Virus record (IMG/VR): IMGVR_UViG_3300022752_004330
Location: 32,001-96,000 of that record
DNA: 64,000 nucleotides
Strand: one strand, 5' to 3'
From: a virus
A model generated the notes under the pieces. It was not told the origin of the DNA, ran no database searches, and worked only from the letters and a program-made list of their open reading frames with translations. A program made the translations under genes and the position numbers. Below, piece by piece: positions 1,086 to 32,531 of this stretch. Numbering within the stretch: position 1 is the stretch's first letter; each line of letters starts with the position of its first letter.

Positions 1086-1426
1086 CCGTCCCAATCTCTT
1101 GTTTTTTCAATGAAAATTTCTAAAATTTCTTTATGATCTAAGTTTTGGAATTCTTTGCTTACTGTGTAAATTTTGTCTATGTCCATGGGTTCCATACCTT
1201 TTAATCCAATAAGTTCAATTATTTCTTGAAAACTTATTTCTTCATTTCTCATGCTGCTTACCCAAATACAAGTTACTAAACAGGCCATAAGCACAATTTT
1301 ATTATTATAGACTCCCTGTATTTCACACCATTCTACAGTGCGTTTGAGATAGTAATCTATATCTTCTAATCTATTTTCTAAGTTCTTGATCCAGTCTTGA
1401 GTGTCTGTTCTTAACCAAGGCTTCAT
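1070..1426 (-). CDS. Hypothetical protein
   Basis: 118-aa ORF coupled to the iscA stop (ATGA overlap). Confidence 0.6.
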
Positions 1427-1749
1427 ACGCTAAAACTTTCTCCACATCCACATTTGGCCTTTTCGTTAGGATTTTTAAATTCAAACCCTTCGTTTAATCC
1501 TTGCTTGACCCAGTCCATTTCTAAACCGGTTAGATAAACCGCACTCTTACCATCCACATAAACTTTTACCCCGTGGTTATCATAGACAAATTGATCTCGG
1601 GTAATAGGCGGAGTATCAACATATTCTAGCACATAGGCTAGCCCACTACATCCTGTGGTCTTTACTCCTACCCTAATGCCTAGGCCTTTACCTCTGCGGG
1701 CAAGATTATGCTTTACTTTTTCTGCTGCTCTTTCAGTTAACGAGATCAT
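1423..1749 (-). CDS. iscA: Fe-S cluster assembly A-type carrier IscA
   Basis: [16 protein letters not shown] and C-terminal CGCGESF motifs. Confidence 0.92.
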
Positions 1750-2130
1750 GTTTTTGTTTATAATCTGCTATTGCCGCTTTTATGGCATCTTCTGCGAGGA
1801 TTGAACAATGTATTTTTACTGGGGGGAGCGCCAGCTCTTCGGCAATCGCCGTATTACGTATTGTGGAAGCCTGGTCAAGAGTCTTGCCTTTAACCCATTC
1901 AGTAACCAGCGAACTACTAGCGATTGCACTGCCGCAACCATAAGTTTTAAATTTTGCATCGGTAATAACACCATCCTCTACCTTTATCTGTAGTTTCATC
2001 ACATCGCCCGTCAGCCGCAAGCGGGAGCACCGACCATGCCGGTTCCCACTTGCGCCATTTCCTCCTTATTAAAAGATCCTACGTTTCTGGGGTTCTCATA
2101 ATGATCCAGAACTTTTTCGCTGTAAGCCAT
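1733..2130 (-). CDS. iscU: Fe-S scaffold IscU, interrupted by an 8-nt insertion (stop plus frame change) at the CGD motif
   Basis: AGGAG SD and ATG at 2130 give [20 protein letters not shown]...GAPACG then TGA (2011-2013); a second frame resumes GGC GAT GTG ATG = (G)DVMKLQIKV...[10 protein letters not shown]...LPPVKIHCS; the joined product is 129 aa. Confidence 0.88.
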
Positions 2131-2132
2131 TT

Positions 2133-2717
2133 TTATTCTCCTAAAATACTTCTAACAACTTCCATTGATTGGAATGAATCCCATTTCTTTCTGTTTTCTT
2201 CTCCTAAGATCCATCTTAAATTTTTCCTACTCCCTAATATAGAGGGATCTATTCCTAGCTCAAATCCTTGACGATAGGGAATAATATGATCCAACTGATA
2301 TTGATTTTTCCTTTTACCTGTGTCAGCAGGTATAAAACCTTCTTGTTTCATAGCATACCAAGATCGATATGTTGCTTTTCTAACTTCTCTCTTATATGCA
2401 GTAAAATTATCGTCTACATAATTCTTAGGACGCCGATTATTAACGCGACCATCTTTGTTAGGATTATCTTGTTTCCATCTTTTGCTTTGTTTTTCATTAG
2501 CAATGCCCTTATTCCAGCCCCATCCTTTTTTTAATCCTTCTCTGTTTTGTTTTGACTTTTGTTCTTCTGTCAGAGTTTTTCCTTTGTTCCAGGGTGTGTA
2601 TTCTCCTCTGTTCAAAGGATTTTTACATTTTTGTGAACAATAATCTAAAAATCTCGGCCTAGTTTCAAATTTTAAACTACAAAAAAGACAAGTTTTAATA
2701 ATGCCATATTTTTTCAT
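2133..2717 (-). CDS. Free-standing HNH homing-endonuclease-like protein with NUMOD3-like repeats and an N-terminal Cys-rich zinc motif
   Basis: CLFC..YCSQKC; PWNKGK / GWNKG repeats; YQLDHIIP...NL...EN.KK HNH core; likely start at 2717, 5 nt after TAAATA. Confidence 0.8.
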   Translation of the reverse strand: MKKYGIIKTCLFCSLKFETRPRFLDYCSQKCKNPLNRGEYTPWNKGKTLTEEQKSKQNREGLKKGWGWNKGIANEKQSKRWKQDNPNKDGRVNNRRPKNYVDDNFTAYKREVRKATYRSWYAMKQEGFIPADTGKRKNQYQLDHIIPYRQGFELGIDPSILGSRKNLRWILGEENRKKWDSFQSMEVVRSILGE

Positions 2718-2787
2718 AACATTATTTATCATCTCGGCGTGCCCGTTTGCGAGTTTAATTTTTAAATTCCTTTTTACTATACTAGCA

Positions 2788-2804
2788 TATTTACCAGGTA
2801 AATA
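2788..2804. promoter_or_regulatory. Back-to-back T4-like late promoters (TATTTAccaggTAAATA)
   Basis: Palindromic pair of TAAATA boxes between the divergent HNH-iscU-iscA and erpA units. Confidence 0.55.
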
Positions 2805-2809
2805 CAAGC

Positions 2810-3133
2810 ATGATTGATATCACAACGTCCGCACAAAATAAGATACAAGAGTTACTTTTGGAAGAAAACAATCCTAATATAAAACTACGCACCTTTGTTC
2901 AAGGAGGTGGATGTTCTGGCTTTCAGTACGGGTTTACTTTTGATGAAGACCAAGCAGATGACGATTTTGAAATTCCAGTAGGCCAATTCAAAATTCTTGT
3001 AGATGCAATGAGTTTACAATATCTGCAAGGAGCAGAAATTGACTATGCAGACGATTTATCTGGTGCTAGTTTCAAAATTAAAAACCCAAATGCTGCTTCT
3101 TCATGCGGATGCGGAAATTCCTTTTCCATTTGA
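2810..3133 (+). CDS. erpA: Fe-S insertion protein ErpA (A-type carrier)
   Basis: [34 protein letters not shown]. Confidence 0.9.
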
Positions 3134-3134
3134 C

Positions 3135-3163
3135 TTGACAAAAAGCCAGATTTAACATATAAT
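3135..3163 (+). promoter_or_regulatory. Sigma70-type (early) promoter
   Basis: TTGACA-17 nt-TATAAT upstream of DNA ligase. Confidence 0.8.
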
Positions 3164-3195
3164 TATTGAATCGTAACTATTAACATTCATACACT

Positions 3196-4509
3196 ATGAG
3201 ACATTGCGATTCAATTATTCGTATTCTACAAGATCACCCCAGCAGGTTAAACAAAGAAGCTATTATTCTTGCAGAAGCAGAATCTGGTAATGAAGAACTT
3301 TTCGCCGGATTTAGATGGTGCCTGAGCCCATATGCTACATTTGGTGTGAAAAAAGTTCCAGAACACAAAAACCCAGATGGTCCCGGAGTGTCTTGGAACG
3401 ACTTTGAAACATTATTGAACATGCTGAGTTCACGAACTATTACTGGACACGATGCAAGAGATGCTATTGAGCGAGTAATGCTAGCCAGCACCAGAAGTCA
3501 ATGGAATGATTGGTATAGACGCATATTGATTAAGGATCTGCGTTGTGGCGTAAGTGAAAAAACTATCAACAAGGTACTACAGGATTTTCCTAACATTGTA
3601 CCTATTCCTGTATTTGAGTGTATGTTAGCACATGATTCTGCTAATCATGAAAAGAAAATTCAAGGTAAAAAATTATTAGAACCCAAACTAGATGGTGTCA
3701 GAGTAATCACCATAGTTGACACTGTGAATAACACAGTGGTGCAATATAGTAGAAATGGTAAAGTATTAGAAAATTTCACTCATATTACCGACAGTTTGTT
3801 AAAACACATTAATCTAATTGAACGTCCTATGGTATTAGACGGTGAAATAGTAAGTACTAGTTTTCAAGATCTTATGAAGCAGGTACATCGCAAGGACAAT
3901 GTACAGGCTGGCGACGCAAGATTAATGCTGTTTGATATTATCCCGTTAAGTGAGTTCAGGGCAGGGGTTAGTGTAATGGGACAGCGCCGCCGTAGTAATT
4001 TGTTACGTACGATGAAACCAATTTTTAATATAATTGGTCATATTGATATTATTCCTCAAGAAGAAGTTGACCTGGACACCTATGTTGGAGAGTTGCAATT
4101 TAAACAGTTTAACAAAGATGCTATAGACAAGGGTTTTGAAGGTATTATGATAAAGGATTTAGAGGCAAAGTATGAATGTAAAAGATCAGCTAGCTGGCTT
4201 AAGCAAAAACCTTTCATTGAAGTATCACTTCAAGTCGTTGAGGTTGAAGAGGGCACAGGCAGGAATGTGGGCAGACTTGGTGCACTGGTCTTGGAAGGTG
4301 TGGATGACGACAAGACAATCAGAGTTAACTGTGGTTCGGGCTTTAGTGACGCTGACCGCGGTATATTTTGGACAGGGCGTGATACGCTACCTGGTCAAGT
4401 AGTAGAGGTTCGTGCAGATGCTATTACACAAAATCAAGACGGTTCTTACTCGCTTAGGTTTCCGAGATTCCTACGTTTCCGAGGATTTAAAGCAGGGGAG
4501 AAACTCTAG
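3196..4509 (+). CDS. ATP-dependent DNA ligase
   Basis: EPKLDGVR (motif I), LDGEI, EGIMIK, WLKQK, SLRFPRF. Confidence 0.93.
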   Translation: MRHCDSIIRILQDHPSRLNKEAIILAEAESGNEELFAGFRWCLSPYATFGVKKVPEHKNPDGPGVSWNDFETLLNMLSSRTITGHDARDAIERVMLASTRSQWNDWYRRILIKDLRCGVSEKTINKVLQDFPNIVPIPVFECMLAHDSANHEKKIQGKKLLEPKLDGVRVITIVDTVNNTVVQYSRNGKVLENFTHITDSLLKHINLIERPMVLDGEIVSTSFQDLMKQVHRKDNVQAGDARLMLFDIIPLSEFRAGVSVMGQRRRSNLLRTMKPIFNIIGHIDIIPQEEVDLDTYVGELQFKQFNKDAIDKGFEGIMIKDLEAKYECKRSASWLKQKPFIEVSLQVVEVEEGTGRNVGRLGALVLEGVDDDKTIRVNCGSGFSDADRGIFWTGRDTLPGQVVEVRADAITQNQDGSYSLRFPRFLRFRGFKAGEKL

Positions 4510-4510
4510 T

Positions 4511-4753
4511 TTGGATAAACAAGCCTTGAAGAATATCTTATATGGAAGTATATATGAGTTAGCTAAAGATCAGAAATATTTTTATCATAGTCCCTTTGGA
4601 GGAAAGTATAATCATTTTACTCCAGAAGGAGAAAAGGCTGTTTTAGAAATCTTAACCATATGGGTAGAAAAAATTTTGCAAGAAGAAAAAACTATTTTAG
4701 ACCAACGTGCTAAAGAATTAGTTATTAAAGGATTAAAAGGAGACAAAGACTAG
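4511..4753 (+). CDS. Hypothetical protein (probable TTG start)
   Basis: ORF fills the gap between ligase and infA. Confidence 0.55.
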
Positions 4754-4971
4754 TGCCAAAAGAGGATTTAATAAGTTTAGATGGAAAAATTGAAGAAGTT
4801 TTACCTAATGCCATGTTCAGAGTGAAATTAGAACAAGGAGCAATAATATTAGGACATATCAGTGGTCGTATGCGGCAAAATAAAATACAAATTTTAACCG
4901 GTGATCGTGTTAAAGTTGAAATGAGTCCTTATGATTTAACCAAAGGACGCATTGTCTATAGAGAAAAATAG
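4753..4971 (+). CDS. infA: Translation initiation factor IF-1
   Basis: [49 protein letters not shown]; 72 aa; GTG start. Confidence 0.95.
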
Positions 4972-5487
4972 TTAATCTAAATCTAAATAACGTCTCCAGC
5001 TGGCATGGGCGAGCGAAAACTCCATGCTTTTTCTGTTATCTACTAACTGGTAGTAATTAGGTTTGTAAGGTTTAATCTTTGGCTTAATTTTTTTGTTATT
5101 TCCCTTTTTAGCATTGCAATCTCCACAGGCTGTCACTGTGTTTTCAAACACAGTTTTACCACCATAACTGGTCGGTAAGACATGATCTAACGTAGCTGTG
5201 GCACGATTCACTTTTACCTCGCAATATTGACAGGTAAATCTATCACGTAGAAATACATTAGATTTACTAAATCGTACGGTTAACTTACGTTTTTCATAAA
5301 CGTGCAACATCATCACCGAAGGCACAGGAGTTGACCAATTTGGTGAGCTTACTACCCAGTTTTCATAAAACTCTAATACTGCGGCCTTTTCTAATACCAT
5401 GTATTTTATAGATTCTTCCCATGGAATTACACTTAACGGAAGCCAAGACACTGGGGCTCCGTCTGCATTTAATATCAACGTCGTCAT
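4972..5487 (-). CDS. HNH endonuclease (McrA-like)
   Basis: TLILNAD..P; VFLRDRFTCQYC; TLDHVLP..GG....N..TAC..CN..KG. Confidence 0.88.
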   Translation of the reverse strand: MTTLILNADGAPVSWLPLSVIPWEESIKYMVLEKAAVLEFYENWVVSSPNWSTPVPSVMMLHVYEKRKLTVRFSKSNVFLRDRFTCQYCEVKVNRATATLDHVLPTSYGGKTVFENTVTACGDCNAKKGNNKKIKPKIKPYKPNYYQLVDNRKSMEFSLAHASWRRYLDLD

Positions 5488-5847: not shown

Positions 5848-7047
5848 ATGAGTATATTATTCATTAACACTGGAACTGGAGCCAATGCTAAAAATGGCGA
5901 TTCACTAAGAACAGCGTTTAATAAAGTAAATCAAAACTTTGCCTATTTAAGCACTGCAAGTTTCGATAAGCATGGAGTTACAGGACCCCAAGGAGTTCCA
6001 GGACCAACTGGTCCAGAAGGTCCGCAGGGTGGACTAGGTCCAATTGGTGTAACTGGTCCACAAGGGCCAAAGGGTGATTTTGGCCCAACTGGTCCTAGCG
6101 GCCCGGCCAGCACAGTTCCAGGGCCACAAGGTCCCACAGGTTCAGTAGGCCCAACTGGTCCAACGGGTGCTATAGGTCCCACAGGTCCCAGCGGAGGACC
6201 TCCAGGTCCAACTGGCCCAACAGGTATACAGGGGCAAATAGGACCTTCTGGTCCATCAGGCCCTCAAGGTTTAAAGGGTGATACTGGAAGTATACAGGTA
6301 AGTTTAATTACTATTGGTAATACTATTACCAATGCTGTAAACAATGTAACCGCATTGAGATTTGATCAGGACAGCGGATTTGATGTTGTGAACCTAGGCG
6401 GCGGTGCTGCCAAAATACAGCTCAATAGTACCTTTAAATATTGGAACGTAAACGGTCTTCCAGGATTAACAGCTGAGGCATTAGATACAGTTAATTTTGT
6501 TGCCAGCACAGGCACTAGAATTGTAGCAACTACATCTGGCACTAACAAATCTATCACATTTAGCGTATTACCCGCTACCACAACTACTCTAGGCGGTGTA
6601 AAATCTGGCGTAGGATTAAACATTTCTGCAGACGGAACTCTCAGCGTAAGAGCAGCTACCACACAGTCTTTAGGCGGTATTATTATTGGTAGTGGTCTAG
6701 CAGCAGGAGTAGACGGCACTGTTAGCGCAGCAGGAGTTATAAAAACTTTTAATGTTGCAGGTGAATTTTGGAGTCCTGTAGCAGGCACAGCAGCCTTTTT
6801 TGTTACTCAACAAACCACACTAAGGTCTGTTAATATCAGTGTAGGATCTGGTTCTACTTCAGATATCATGGCGGGTTTATATAGAAATAATAGTTTGATA
6901 TCTTTTTTTACTTTGCCAGCTGGTTATCAAAACTTGTGGATAAATAGTCCTATTACCACCTTATATGTAAATGATAGACTTACAGTGAGCATTGAAACTG
7001 GTCAAGGGTTGAATTTTTCAATGGAACTGCTTAATATCCAAAAATAA
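5848..7047 (+). CDS. Collagen-like (Gly-X-Y) tail fibre/baseplate-associated protein
   Basis: N-terminal [23 protein letters not shown] resembling T4-like baseplate attachment motifs; long GPT/GPQ run; [10 protein letters not shown] repeats. Confidence 0.75.
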
Positions 7048-30032: not shown

Positions 30033-32531
30033 TTATCTCCTATACTGCTGTTCTATCATTTCTTGATGCCTTGCATCTTGAGCTAGATTACGTAATGCTC
30101 TAACATTATCTATTGTACGTTGGTTACGATATATTTCGCGTGGTGTATAAAATGCTGCATCTTTTAACACCAAAGAAGCATAAACATTAAAACCTTGAGG
30201 GGCTAGGGCAATGGTCTCTATACCGATACCACCGGCAAGTTCATTATTGGCTACATTTCTATTCACGCTAGATAATTCTGTTTTTGGCTGATTAGAATCA
30301 GTCATTAATATACGTCCTTCAACTATTGACGTTATTGGATTTGTTCTATTAGTAATGAAATTAGCAGGATTCACTATAGAATCTAATTCTGTAGTTTTTA
30401 TTTCAACTGGATTTACCACAGTGGACTGCGTAATAGTACTTGATTCAGGTATTATTACACTGGCAGGTGCGGGCGCTGAATCTGTCATTGGTATTGTTGG
30501 TCTAAACACATTGGTTACCTGCGGACGATTGTCAATTACCGCTAGGTCAACTTGTGGTACAGTCATTAACATTGGTTCTTGCTTAGGTGTCTGTACTATG
30601 TCATTACCCTGTGGTGATTGATAGGGCGTAATTATCGCTGCTACGGTTGTTGTTTGCGTGACAATATTTTGTTGTGGTTCAGGCGCTCTAACTTGAGAGA
30701 TCAATGACCCTGTATTTGTAGGTTCGTTAGGCATTACAATTTCTACTGGTGTTGAAGTTTGTCTTTGTGCTATTGATAACTGTGGTTGAAGTGCAGCAGA
30801 AATTGAGCTTAATGTTGTATTGGTAACAGGTCCTAAATTCATCTGCGCTGCCATGGTATTAACACTGTTGGTAGTCATTGGAACATTAGCAGCTTGAGCG
30901 GCGTCAGCAGCAGCATCTGAGGCCGCTGCACCTTGCTGTTGGTTAGCGTCTGCTACAGACACAGCCTCCGATCTTGCGGCATCGGCACGAGCAATAGCTT
31001 CATTTCTAGCATTTTCACTCGCTCTTTGTGCTATAGTTTGCTCTCTACGCTGATTTGCCTGTACAAGACTTAGGGCAAATTGTGTATTGGATCTAGTCGC
31101 AGATGGTTCATTACTGGCACTAGTGTTTACCGCAGTTGCTACATTAACAGAGGGTGTAGCACCGTTGGCATTTTCTATAGTAACAGTGATTGCACCGCCT
31201 GGGGCAGATGAGCTAGAGCTAGTAGTTGCTGGTGTTAGAGCAGCTATGCGTTCTTGTTGTGCCTTAACATCTGCTATGACTTGAGTCAAGGTTGATTGAA
31301 AATTACTACAATTAGGACTATATAAACCATTAGTGTAACAAGGATCAGGAGTCCAGATAGGCCTAGTCCAACCGACCCAACCAAAATGATTCCATACATC
31401 ACTGGCCCACCATTGAACAGATCCCATGTCTAAACTATTCTTACTTTCAGTGAACAAATGCCTAGAACTAAAACTACCAGCATTATTATTACCAGATACA
31501 TACCATTGATTTTGAAACATAGTAGTATTGTTCTTATCACTTATTCTAAAGTTTATATTACCGCCACCATCGGTACGCCAATCTGTACACCAAAACAAAA
31601 AGGTATTATAACAAGCACCGTAATTATACCAATTGAATCCGTAGTCGTAGCCGTGCAATACCACACCTCCGCCAATGTGTGGCAAGGATTGAGCTATGTT
31701 ATAACTATAATAAAATGTTGGACTTTTGGCTCCTTGTAGAACATTAGAAAATCCGGCACAACTGGAATTAAATGCAGGATTTAATATACAAGGATCTACA
31801 CTATATATGGCACGGATGTATGCGTCTTTTACTTGAGGTCCATAACAGTTTGGATTACATGCCCAAAATCCCTGGTCACTTCCAATGATTTCATAATTTA
31901 CAGCACCGGCCTGAGCTAAAGGTTTTGCCCCAGCAAAGGTAACTGTTTGTGATAAAGTTTGCCAGCTGGGGTTATAGGGACTATTACCATCGTTTATGTT
32001 TTTAAGCCCTAACTGATGTGTATAAAAAGTAGGGGAACCTGTCGATGGATAGTAACCAACTTCCACTCTTAGATTGTCCTGTGTTGGATTGGCAATAAAC
32101 CCTGCCTGAGCTGTTCCATCACAATTAGTTCCTATGCTATTAGCACAGGGAAATCTATATTTTAAGCCATACATGAATCCAGTAACAAACACTGCACTAG
32201 AGTTTAAATATCCATGATTAAAACTACTTAAATTGACACTAGGGTTTTGGCCGAGTGATTCTACACCATAACCAAAAGTATAGCCATCTACACCAAATGA
32301 ACCCCCTGGACTGACCGGTGTCCAGGTAGGGCTACCAGTTGTTACAGTCCATCCCGACACCGATGATATAGAACCATTTGATATAAGATTGCCTGTTACA
32401 CTATCAATACTATAACCACTAGGCGTGTTAGGCGAAGTCTGAGCATAGACAGCACCCAAAGCCATGACGATGATAATTAAAAGGAAGATTAAAAATCCTC
32501 GAGTATGCTTATACCCGTAGTTTGGTTCCAT
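30033..32531 (-). CDS. Large secreted/membrane protein with Cys-containing modules and a low-complexity C-terminal half
   Basis: N-terminal hydrophobic segment; two DPC..N.....C motifs. Confidence 0.7.
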   Translation of the reverse strand: MEPNYGYKHTRGFLIFLLIIIVMALGAVYAQTSPNTPSGYSIDSVTGNLISNGSISSVSGWTVTTGSPTWTPVSPGGSFGVDGYTFGYGVESLGQNPSVNLSSFNHGYLNSSAVFVTGFMYGLKYRFPCANSIGTNCDGTAQAGFIANPTQDNLRVEVGYYPSTGSPTFYTHQLGLKNINDGNSPYNPSWQTLSQTVTFAGAKPLAQAGAVNYEIIGSDQGFWACNPNCYGPQVKDAYIRAIYSVDPCILNPAFNSSCAGFSNVLQGAKSPTFYYSYNIAQSLPHIGGGVVLHGYDYGFNWYNYGACYNTFLFWCTDWRTDGGGNINFRISDKNNTTMFQNQWYVSGNNNAGSFSSRHLFTESKNSLDMGSVQWWASDVWNHFGWVGWTRPIWTPDPCYTNGLYSPNCSNFQSTLTQVIADVKAQQERIAALTPATTSSSSSAPGGAITVTIENANGATPSVNVATAVNTSASNEPSATRSNTQFALSLVQANQRREQTIAQRASENARNEAIARADAARSEAVSVADANQQQGAAASDAAADAAQAANVPMTTNSVNTMAAQMNLGPVTNTTLSSISAALQPQLSIAQRQTSTPVEIVMPNEPTNTGSLISQVRAPEPQQNIVTQTTTVAAIITPYQSPQGNDIVQTPKQEPMLMTVPQVDLAVIDNRPQVTNVFRPTIPMTDSAPAPASVIIPESSTITQSTVVNPVEIKTTELDSIVNPANFITNRTNPITSIVEGRILMTDSNQPKTELSSVNRNVANNELAGGIGIETIALAPQGFNVYASLVLKDAAFYTPREIYRNQRTIDNVRALRNLAQDARHQEMIEQQYRR

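Follow-up and report, generated by a model that had tools for sequence, protein, structure and literature searches.

A short, stop-containing insert in the iscU gene of freshwater phages: a probable translational bypass site linked to an HNH-like endonuclease gene

The DNA analyzed here (hereafter, the window) is a stretch of 64,000 nucleotides (nt), positions 32,001 to 96,000 of the IMG/VR virus record IMGVR_UViG_3300022752_004330. The source contig is 113.7 kb long with an estimated completeness of 32%, implying that it derives from a huge phage, and the stretch is present in sequencing runs of freshwater and lake metagenomes from 13 studies; the single RNA run with any of it (X20) contains 6% of the sampled words. 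Near the start of the window lies iscU, which encodes an iron-sulfur (Fe-S) scaffold protein and is interrupted by 8 nt that carry an in-frame stop codon. The Gly codons on either side of the stop are called the take-off and landing codons below, after the roles proposed for them. All coordinates of the interruption refer to the minus strand, on which the locus contains the following features, listed from 5' to 3':

2133-2717, minus strand: free-standing HNH-like gene, 194 aa, recognized as an open reading frame (ORF), from an alignment of 16 homologues and from sub-threshold family matches
2014-2130, minus strand: N-terminal half of iscU (N-half), 39 codons from the ATG through the take-off Gly codon; NifU_N profile positions 1-35
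2061-2067, minus strand: internal Shine-Dalgarno (SD)-like motif AAGGAGG, 44 nt 5' of the take-off codon; the hairpin begins a few nt 3' of it
2016-2054, minus strand: 5' hairpin of 11 bp plus 4 bp, 39 nt; folding energy and covariation
2014-2016, minus strand: take-off Gly codon GGC; GGN in all 80 versions of the interruption
2011-2013, minus strand: in-frame stop codon TGA immediately 3' of the take-off codon, with C as the next base (weak UGA-C context)
2009-2010, minus strand: 2-nt spacer CG; 0-3 nt and freely variable in relatives
2006-2008, minus strand: landing Gly codon GGC; GGN in all versions, always with GAY directly 3'
1733-2005, minus strand: C-terminal part of iscU (C-half), 90 codons from the Asp codon GAT, plus the stop codon; NifU_N profile positions 35-124
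1423-1749, minus strand: iscA-like gene for an A-type carrier, overlapping the iscU stop codon; Pfam Fe-S_biosyn, E 1.7e-18; kept 3' of iscU in relatives

Taken together, the observations reported below make it quite probable that this iscU gene is decoded by a programmed short translational bypass (a 'stop-hop') tied to a homing endonuclease.

The iscU ATG (2130-2128) is preceded, 9 nt upstream, by GGAG, and the HNH-like ORF (2717-2133) stops 2 nt ahead of it. The junction reads GCT TGC GGC TGA CG GGC GAT GTG ATG, so that the 8-nt insert falls inside the invariant A-C-G-D motif. After GAT GTG ATG, the reading frame of the C-half (the C frame) stays open until the stop codon at 1735-1733. The Pfam family NifU_N (PF01592) covers both pieces end to end and above cut-off, although in different frames (profile positions 1-35, E 5.7e-11; positions 35-124, E 1.9e-36). 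Joining iscU at the two GGC codons yields a protein of 129 aa with the canonical APACGDVMK, in which the three Cys and the Asp ligands are retained (C37-G-D39, YGC63GS and HC106S). The coordinates and sequence of the interruption are as described in an earlier, sequence-only reading of this DNA, which interpreted the site as a stop-hop with an HNH cassette; that first interpretation is supported by the present analysis.

The 8-nt insert is real DNA and not an assembly error. Logan contigs from four runs of four studies were compared with positions 1400-3200, and no insertion or deletion was reported at the insert site. The junction was covered with 0 differences and 0 gaps by contigs from two studies, a freshwater one of 2011 and an aquatic one of 2018 (X7 record 19, 1927-2271, and X9 record 26, 1925-2384); these contigs were assembled independently, and neither study is a candidate source of the window. 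An assembly or sequencing artefact, or a minority variant in a mostly uninterrupted population, might be considered because the window is a metagenomic contig and contigs drop rare variants. The same sequence nevertheless occurs in independently assembled contigs from different studies and years and dozens of diverged relatives share its architecture, leaving this explanation a negligible chance.

Relatives were collected from 80 viral loci nearest to the IscU C-half by similarity, a starting set selected on the C-half only. Within it, 73 loci are uninterrupted and seven are interrupted, all at exactly the same codon. All 73 uninterrupted alleles read TGY GGN GAY at the site, which marks the insert as a specific departure. 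DNA-pattern scans and a search with the HNH-like protein enlarged the set to 162 loci representing 80 distinct 300-nt contexts, referred to as versions. The insert is thus not unique to one genome: the 80 viral and metagenomic versions are interrupted at the same spot with the architecture GGN, stop, 0-3 nt, GGN, GAY. The codon entering the A site is TGA in 52 versions, TAA in 14, TAG in 12 and TGT in two, so the stop is kept as a class and not as a particular sequence.

Insert length differs among the versions and is 7 nt in 45, 8 nt in 25, 9 nt in nine and 6 nt in only one, L255, which reads GGT TGA GGA. A variable-gap scan that allowed inserts of 4-16 nt, in alleles with GCTTGC only, found lengths of 7-9 nt only, and a metagenome scan with 37 iscU matches returned the same junction types and no further lengths. 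Lengths switch even within well-supported clades, as among L005 (7 nt), L249 (9 nt) and L255 (6 nt), which group with a support of 97, and in a second clade among L259 (9 nt), L266 (7 nt) and L269 (9 nt). Inserts of 7 and 8 nt require opposite frame corrections, whereas those of 6 and 9 nt keep the frame but with an in-frame stop. No single frameshift or readthrough event can therefore decode all of them, while a hop from GGN to GGN can; on this point the sequence-only reading, which had preferred a hop to a simple frameshift, is borne out by the lengths of 6, 7, 8 and 9 nt. Its emphasis on matched Gly codons applies to the window (GGC and GGC) and only in part to the family: the codons for take-off and landing are identical in 43 of the 80 versions, pair GGT with GGC in five and are wobble-mismatched in 32, the GG doublet alone being invariant.

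Both halves of the gene bear the marks of a functional protein. The allele set comprised 127 distinct hop-joined coding sequences, including 53 interrupted alleles, none of which has another stop or frameshift; both halves are intact throughout. In eight interrupted clades, the ratio of nonsynonymous to synonymous substitution rates (dN/dS) falls within 0.00-0.24 in the N-half and within 0.06-0.13 in the C-half, compared to 0.11 and 0.07, respectively, in uninterrupted alleles. Synonymous divergence (dS) of the C-half is about 1, and dS reaches about 1.5 since divergence among interrupted alleles. Both iscU halves are under purifying selection as strong as that in uninterrupted alleles, an outcome that favours the sequence-only reading. 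The codons between the landing site and Met41 were compared in loci not selected on these positions: the landing Gly codon (GGA, GGC or GGT), Asp39 (GAT or GAC) and Val40 (GTA, GTC, GTT or GTG) vary synonymously only, which indicates that they are translated in the C frame, although no start codon lies 5' of them. In L255, CTT replaces the Met41 ATG so that no restart codon is left, which counts against re-initiation as a general mechanism. Two relatives, L209 (2248-3528, minus strand) and L214, carry the same element and were also fetched as L241 and L238. In addition to the 8-nt insert, their C-half holds an intein at Cys63 (YGC|GSAIAS) that is intact (C...HN|C), about 330 aa long and matched weakly by Pfam Hint. 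The presence of both insert and intein indicates that the phage iscU gene is a hotspot for selfish elements.

Interrupted alleles also share RNA signals. The 44 nt that end at the take-off codon have a mean folding energy of -24.6 kcal/mol in interrupted and -12.7 kcal/mol in uninterrupted alleles (Mann-Whitney p 1.5e-18). In the window, this region forms the hairpin at 2054-2016 (-28.8 kcal/mol, z -4.84), a structure of 15 bp in total whose 3' arm consists of the Ala-Pro-Ala-Cys codons and the first G of the take-off codon. Across 31 distinct sequences, 97% of the alignment cells at its pairs are paired, and compensatory double changes occur at four pairs (25 cells), a level of covariation reached by 0 of 500 shuffles. 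Pair 12-42 of alignment A2 is AU, CG or UA, and pair 15-39 is UA, CG, UG, GC or GU. When the partners were slid as a control, pairing dropped to 32-45%. The small folds CCG-CUUG-CGG and CCCG...CGGG, originally put forward for the site, were rejected, being superseded by this significant, larger 39-nt hairpin.

Just 5' of the hairpin, 41-44 nt before the take-off codon, lies the SD-like motif. A 5-mer of the AGGAG type occurs between -60 and -30 in 53 of 53 interrupted alleles, as opposed to 11 of 63 uninterrupted alleles free of the HNH-like gene, and it is retained despite differences in the residues it encodes (K-E-E, K-G-D or E-E-T). A profile of mean pairwise identity along the locus over all alleles was uninformative; in per-clade profiles, the 60 nt before the junction are nearly identical, which we attribute to the hairpin and to common cassette ancestry. 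Codon 31 of iscU, seven codons before the take-off codon, corresponds in interrupted alleles to the apical loop of the hairpin and encodes M, L, I or V (amino-acid entropy 1.72). In HNH-free alleles it is a near-invariant Met (entropy 0.32).

The product of the HNH-like gene has an N-terminal four-Cys ribbon, NUMOD3-like PWNKG/GWNKG repeats and a C-terminal D-H...N...N motif. Residues C10, C13, C27, C31, D143, H144, N166 and N175 are invariant in the alignment of 16 homologues. Structure comparison yielded weak matches, with HNH domains in the top rows of Foldseek at E values above 0.5 and, by VIA-align, 4h9d (an HNH nicking endonuclease; Z 4.5, root mean square deviation 3.6 over 67 residues) and 5h0o (Z 3.8). 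The protein matches phrog_5104 in PHROGs, for which no function is assigned there, and a profile search against the PDB returned no match. Homologues lie directly 5' of iscU in nearly all of the 63 loci found with the HNH protein.

This gene and the insert occur together, as had been proposed. In the set selected by C-half similarity, the HNH-like gene or a remnant is found at 6 of 7 interrupted and 1 of 73 uninterrupted loci. In the allele set, the 53 interrupted alleles comprise 38 with a full HNH-like gene, four with a remnant, ten with none and one that could not be scored; the corresponding numbers for the 74 uninterrupted alleles are six, two, 63 and three. An HNH-like gene or remnant is thus upstream of 42 of 52 scorable interrupted and 8 of 71 scorable uninterrupted alleles (raw odds ratio 33). 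L039, a relative that shares its gene order with the window, has neither the HNH-like gene nor the insert.

Phylogenetic tests separate the two halves of the gene. With the N-half columns, grouping of the interrupted alleles as one clade was not rejected (p-AU 0.86), whereas it was rejected with the C-half columns (difference in log likelihood 258.5, p 3e-6). The HNH-like gene, the N-half and the insert therefore look like a cassette that was recombined onto many C-halves with its boundary at the insert. From these sequence comparisons, the mobile unit appears to be the HNH-like gene plus the whole iscU N-half plus the insert, and a mosaic with this boundary is what homing with cleavage near the ACGD codons would be expected to leave. 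The HNH-positive uninterrupted alleles (L223, L234, L237, L244-L254 and L273) lack the hairpin and the SD-like motif, and their residues at the site are unusual (APSCGDVL, ACGDLM and TGSPACGD); these changes may represent an alternative immunity of the target site. Across codons 30-42 of the same alleles, G-L-V/T-G replaces G-M-V-G.

We propose the following course of events. A ribosome would arrive with the take-off GGC (Gly38) in its P site and UGA-C in its A site, where termination would be slow. The peptidyl-tRNA-Gly would then unpair and, in the window, the mRNA would slide by 8 nt until the same tRNA re-pairs at the next GGN, a landing codon that would not be decoded a second time. Decoding would restart at GAU and lead to the canonical 129-aa IscU with its C-G-D cluster-binding motif intact. 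Refolding of the hairpin behind the ribosome, with a 3' arm of 11 nt just before and into the take-off codon, may pull the mRNA forward; a re-zipping hairpin that pulls the mRNA is an idea put forward for T4 gene 60 (bioRxiv 10.1101/2024.12.09.627546). A possible role of the AGGAG at the hairpin's 5' foot is to anchor or position the ribosome. At the DNA level, the HNH-like endonuclease would cut uninterrupted iscU near the ACGD codons, and repair from a cassette-bearing phage would copy the HNH-like gene, the N-half and the insert into the cut allele, where the insert would destroy the endonuclease target while leaving the protein unchanged. The hop as such, the parts played in it by hairpin and SD-like motif, HNH cleavage and insert immunity are all inferred from sequence comparison.

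One alternative to a hop is a split IscU, in which termination would release a 39-aa N-terminal peptide, translation would restart at the Met41 ATG (or, in the window, at GTG) and the two fragments would assemble. Like a hop, it is independent of frame and can accommodate inserts of 6-9 nt. All versions but one have an ATG 6 nt after the landing codon, many versions have an SD-like GGAGAT or GGTGAT before it, and genes split by homing endonucleases are known from T4 gp39/gp60 and Aeh1 NrdA (bioRxiv 10.1101/2022.08.31.505936). However, Cys37 would be left on the 39-aa peptide and the C-terminal fragment would be without Asp39, a cluster ligand; the GAY and GTN codons that precede the restart nevertheless vary synonymously only, in the manner of translated codons. 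GGCGAT, found in several versions including the window, is a poor SD sequence, and L255 has no other start codon near its CTT. It is also hard to see what a covarying hairpin with its end exactly on the take-off codon, or an SD-like motif located 41-44 nt upstream of that codon, would contribute to a restart about 16 nt downstream. We regard a split protein as unlikely. A dead gene, with the insert as a repair scar of the neighbouring endonuclease, is very improbable and strongly disfavoured: iscU is formally broken by a stop (plus a frameshift in the window) and, as an auxiliary gene, could be lost by a phage, but its halves are intact in 53 of 53 interrupted alleles with low dN/dS at dS of up to about 1.5, the stop is conserved as a class, compensatory changes keep the hairpin and an intact intein persists in the C-half.

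Recoding could also differ with insert length, with a +1 shift for 7 nt, a +2 or -1 shift for 8 nt and readthrough for 6 and 9 nt, in which case IscU would gain two or three residues between Cys37 and Asp39. The combination of a stop in the weak UGA-C context and an SD-like motif upstream in the coding sequence resembles the +1 frameshift site of prfB (release factor 2), and the spacer of the 8-nt class reads ACN in the C frame with all four bases seen at N, as would synonymous Thr codons. In prfB, the tRNA re-pairs on an overlapping codon (CUU to UUU) and the SD lies 3 nt upstream. By contrast, no overlapping re-pairing is possible in iscU, since tRNA-Gly cannot re-pair at +1, +2 or -1 on GGN-U(G/A); the lengths also differ in frame, and the SD-like motif lies at a distance of 41-44 nt. 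Three or four mechanisms would be needed for one homologous element whose length switches within clades, and the would-be extra residues vary freely (N, D, R or E), at odds with the strict C-G-D of uninterrupted alleles. Length-specific recoding is therefore quite improbable, and a hop between the two Gly codons is the explanation that we prefer.

Several observations weigh against this preferred explanation and its link to a homing endonuclease. The 32 wobble mismatches (GGT to GGA, 21; GGA to GGT, nine; GGA to GGC, one; GGG to GGT, one) are beyond the reach of one tRNA-Gly of the E. coli type, so that the hop would require either a tRNA-Gly able to read every GGN codon or re-pairing in the P site through two of the three bases. 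No tRNA-Gly gene was found on the 113.7-kb contig, the search returning only a transfer-messenger RNA (tmRNA). Tolerance of third-position mismatches has been reported for homologues of gene 60 and for the byps of a yeast mitochondrial genome discussed below (bioRxiv 10.1101/2022.08.31.505936; PMC5009743). L265 and L266 have the sense codon TGT in place of a stop; their junction near position 2194 reads GGT TGTT GGA GAT, a 7-nt insert with the hairpin still present, and they represent either an allele in decay or a 'hungry codon' variant. One base 5' of the landing GGC in the window is a GGG, a possible out-of-frame landing site. Short hops in synthetic constructs, as studied by Weiss in 1987, were reportedly of low efficiency. 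Concerning the endonuclease, the sequence-only reading had placed a NUMOD3/HNH gene 2 nt before iscU, and its position is as stated; its family assignment relies on sub-threshold matches only (Pfam HNH for 9 of 16 members, best E 0.0065; NUMOD3, E 0.017), with HNH, HNH_4 and HNH_5 all below threshold. The association between the HNH-like gene and the insert reduces to four phylogenetically independent contrasts, all in the same direction, for which p can be no lower than 0.125. Finally, convergent constraint imposed by the hairpin and SD-like motif could account for part of the apparent single origin of the N-half.

The closest known system is T4 gene 60 with its endonuclease MobA (Huang 1988; Bonocora 2011; Manning & Atkins, bioRxiv 10.1101/2022.08.31.505936). 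As in iscU, a Gly take-off codon is directly followed by a stop, a downstream Gly landing codon is next to the resume codon, and the insert interrupts a conserved active-site motif at residues that are invariant. A gene for an HNH-type endonuclease (HNH-like in the case of iscU) is directly upstream in both, versions without the endonuclease keep the insert, and the element has spread repeatedly into different alleles. Take-off and landing codons need not agree at the wobble base, and in rare cases a sense codon stands in place of the stop. The differences are equally clear. The gap between the codons is 3-6 nt in iscU (5 nt in the window, for inserts of 6-9 nt) versus 47 nt in gene 60 (a 50-nt insert), leaving no room for a take-off stem-loop in the A site and no SD within the gap, unlike gene 60. 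The dominant covarying signal in iscU is the 5' hairpin that abuts the take-off codon together with its SD-like foot, whereas the 5' stem-loop of gene 60 homologues is not conserved (bioRxiv 10.1101/2022.08.31.505936). The target is iscU rather than the large subunit of topoisomerase II, iscU is not split into two ORFs with added tails, and the hosts of the element are uncultured freshwater huge phages. BLASTP detected no similarity between the HNH-like protein and T4 gp60.1, the C-terminal remnant of MobA (E 4.1); T4 mobA is fragmented by stops in the record used. The iscU element works like gene 60/MobA but stands outside that element family, with a different gene and gap length, different signals and apparently a different endonuclease.

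Synthetic stop-hops in E. coli (Weiss, Dunn, Atkins, Gesteland 1987; PMC5009743) have exactly the form of the 6-nt L255, and the window is a +8 version of them. Those constructs were artificial, in contrast to the iscU element, which is natural and conserved, comes with additional RNA signals and is tied to a mobile endonuclease. A 2016 review of recoding noted that no natural in-frame stop-hop was known, and that shorter counterparts of bypassing "have long been presumed" to exist (PMC5009743). The byps of Magnusiomyces capitatus mitochondria (Lang 2014; Nosek 2015, cited in PMC5009743) are likewise short mobile inserts in coding genes that are skipped by translation; their take-off and landing codons match or nearly match, mismatches at the wobble base and larger ones being tolerated, and the codon in the A site is poorly decodable. 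They are GC-rich, 27-55 nt long, spread over many genes of one mitochondrial genome and without an endonuclease, whereas the iscU inserts are 6-9 nt long and confined to a single site of one phage gene family. Intronless homing by the T4 Mob and Seg families (PMC2988022) resembles the iscU locus in its free-standing endonuclease gene beside a conserved gene, in target differences that protect its own genome and in co-conversion of flanking markers, giving rise to mosaic alleles. It differs in that protection in iscU is proposed to come from a non-coding insert repaired at translation, otherwise known only for MobA/gene 60, and in that some HNH-positive iscU alleles carry amino-acid changes at the site instead. 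No paper that connects iscU with bypassing turned up in full-text literature searches. Among cultured phages, blastn with the locus and tblastn with the HNH protein revealed no isolate with the cassette and only distant relatives of the protein, in T4-like Acinetobacter, Aeromonas and Sinorhizobium phages (at most 40% identity over half of the protein). A pattern scan of cellular genome contigs gave at least 120 matches, and none of those listed is iscU.

Further genes of note lie elsewhere in the window. A second A-type Fe-S carrier (Fe-S_biosyn; E 1.7e-19 and 1.7e-18 for the two carriers) is encoded at 2810-3133 on the plus strand. The two carriers, on opposite strands, flank the HNH-iscU pair, which indicates that the phage has a small iron-sulfur cluster (ISC) module. 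Also on the plus strand with the second carrier is a gene for an ATP-dependent DNA ligase, in a unit whose last gene (4753-4971, plus strand) encodes a phage translation initiation factor, IF-1 (Pfam eIF-1a, E 1.5e-26); a perfect TTGACA-17-TATAAT promoter lies upstream at 3135-3163. A scan for sigma-70 promoters found nothing decisive 5' of iscU or the HNH-like gene, and TATAAATA is not enriched in the window, so no late-promoter claim is made for the HNH-like gene. About 2 kb from the iscU cassette, at 4972-5487 on the minus strand, is a second and clear-cut HNH endonuclease gene (Pfam HNH_5, E 4e-13; HNH, E 2e-10). A 399-aa protein with long collagen-like G-x-y repeats (5848-7047, plus strand; Pfam Collagen, E 6e-12) is probably a fibre or tail component. 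The tmRNA, at 56443-56796 on the minus strand, is of the permuted betaproteobacterial type (Rfam beta_tmRNA, 123.8 bits; tmRNA_permuted, 126.4 bits), which hints at a betaproteobacterial host; its tag peptide is predicted by ARAGORN to be ANDDYFGEVRLAA.

The iscU element is probably a natural, widespread and minimal form of bypassing: a stop-hop of 6-9 nt, driven by a re-forming hairpin with an SD-like anchor, that serves as the immunity half of a homing cassette in the iscU gene of freshwater huge phages. Phages would then have two independent bypass systems, T4 gene 60 being the earlier one, and a stop-hop would be known from nature for the first time. Until now, a single element family, that of T4 gene 60, has been the basis for programmed bypassing in bacteria and phages. 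If the proposed decoding is true, the iscU family would supply the missing natural case of a stop-hop in 80 natural variants. Their gap lengths, stops, wobble pairs and hairpin compensations would constitute a ready-made mutational series that bears on ribosome sliding over a few bases, on the strictness of tRNA re-pairing in the P site and on mRNA refolding at the exit channel as a driver. Genes interrupted in this way are now called as two fragments or as pseudogenes, a consequence for annotation. If true, the element would also be a second, independent case of a homing endonuclease whose own target is concealed by an accompanying recoding insert, suggesting a general evolutionary strategy.

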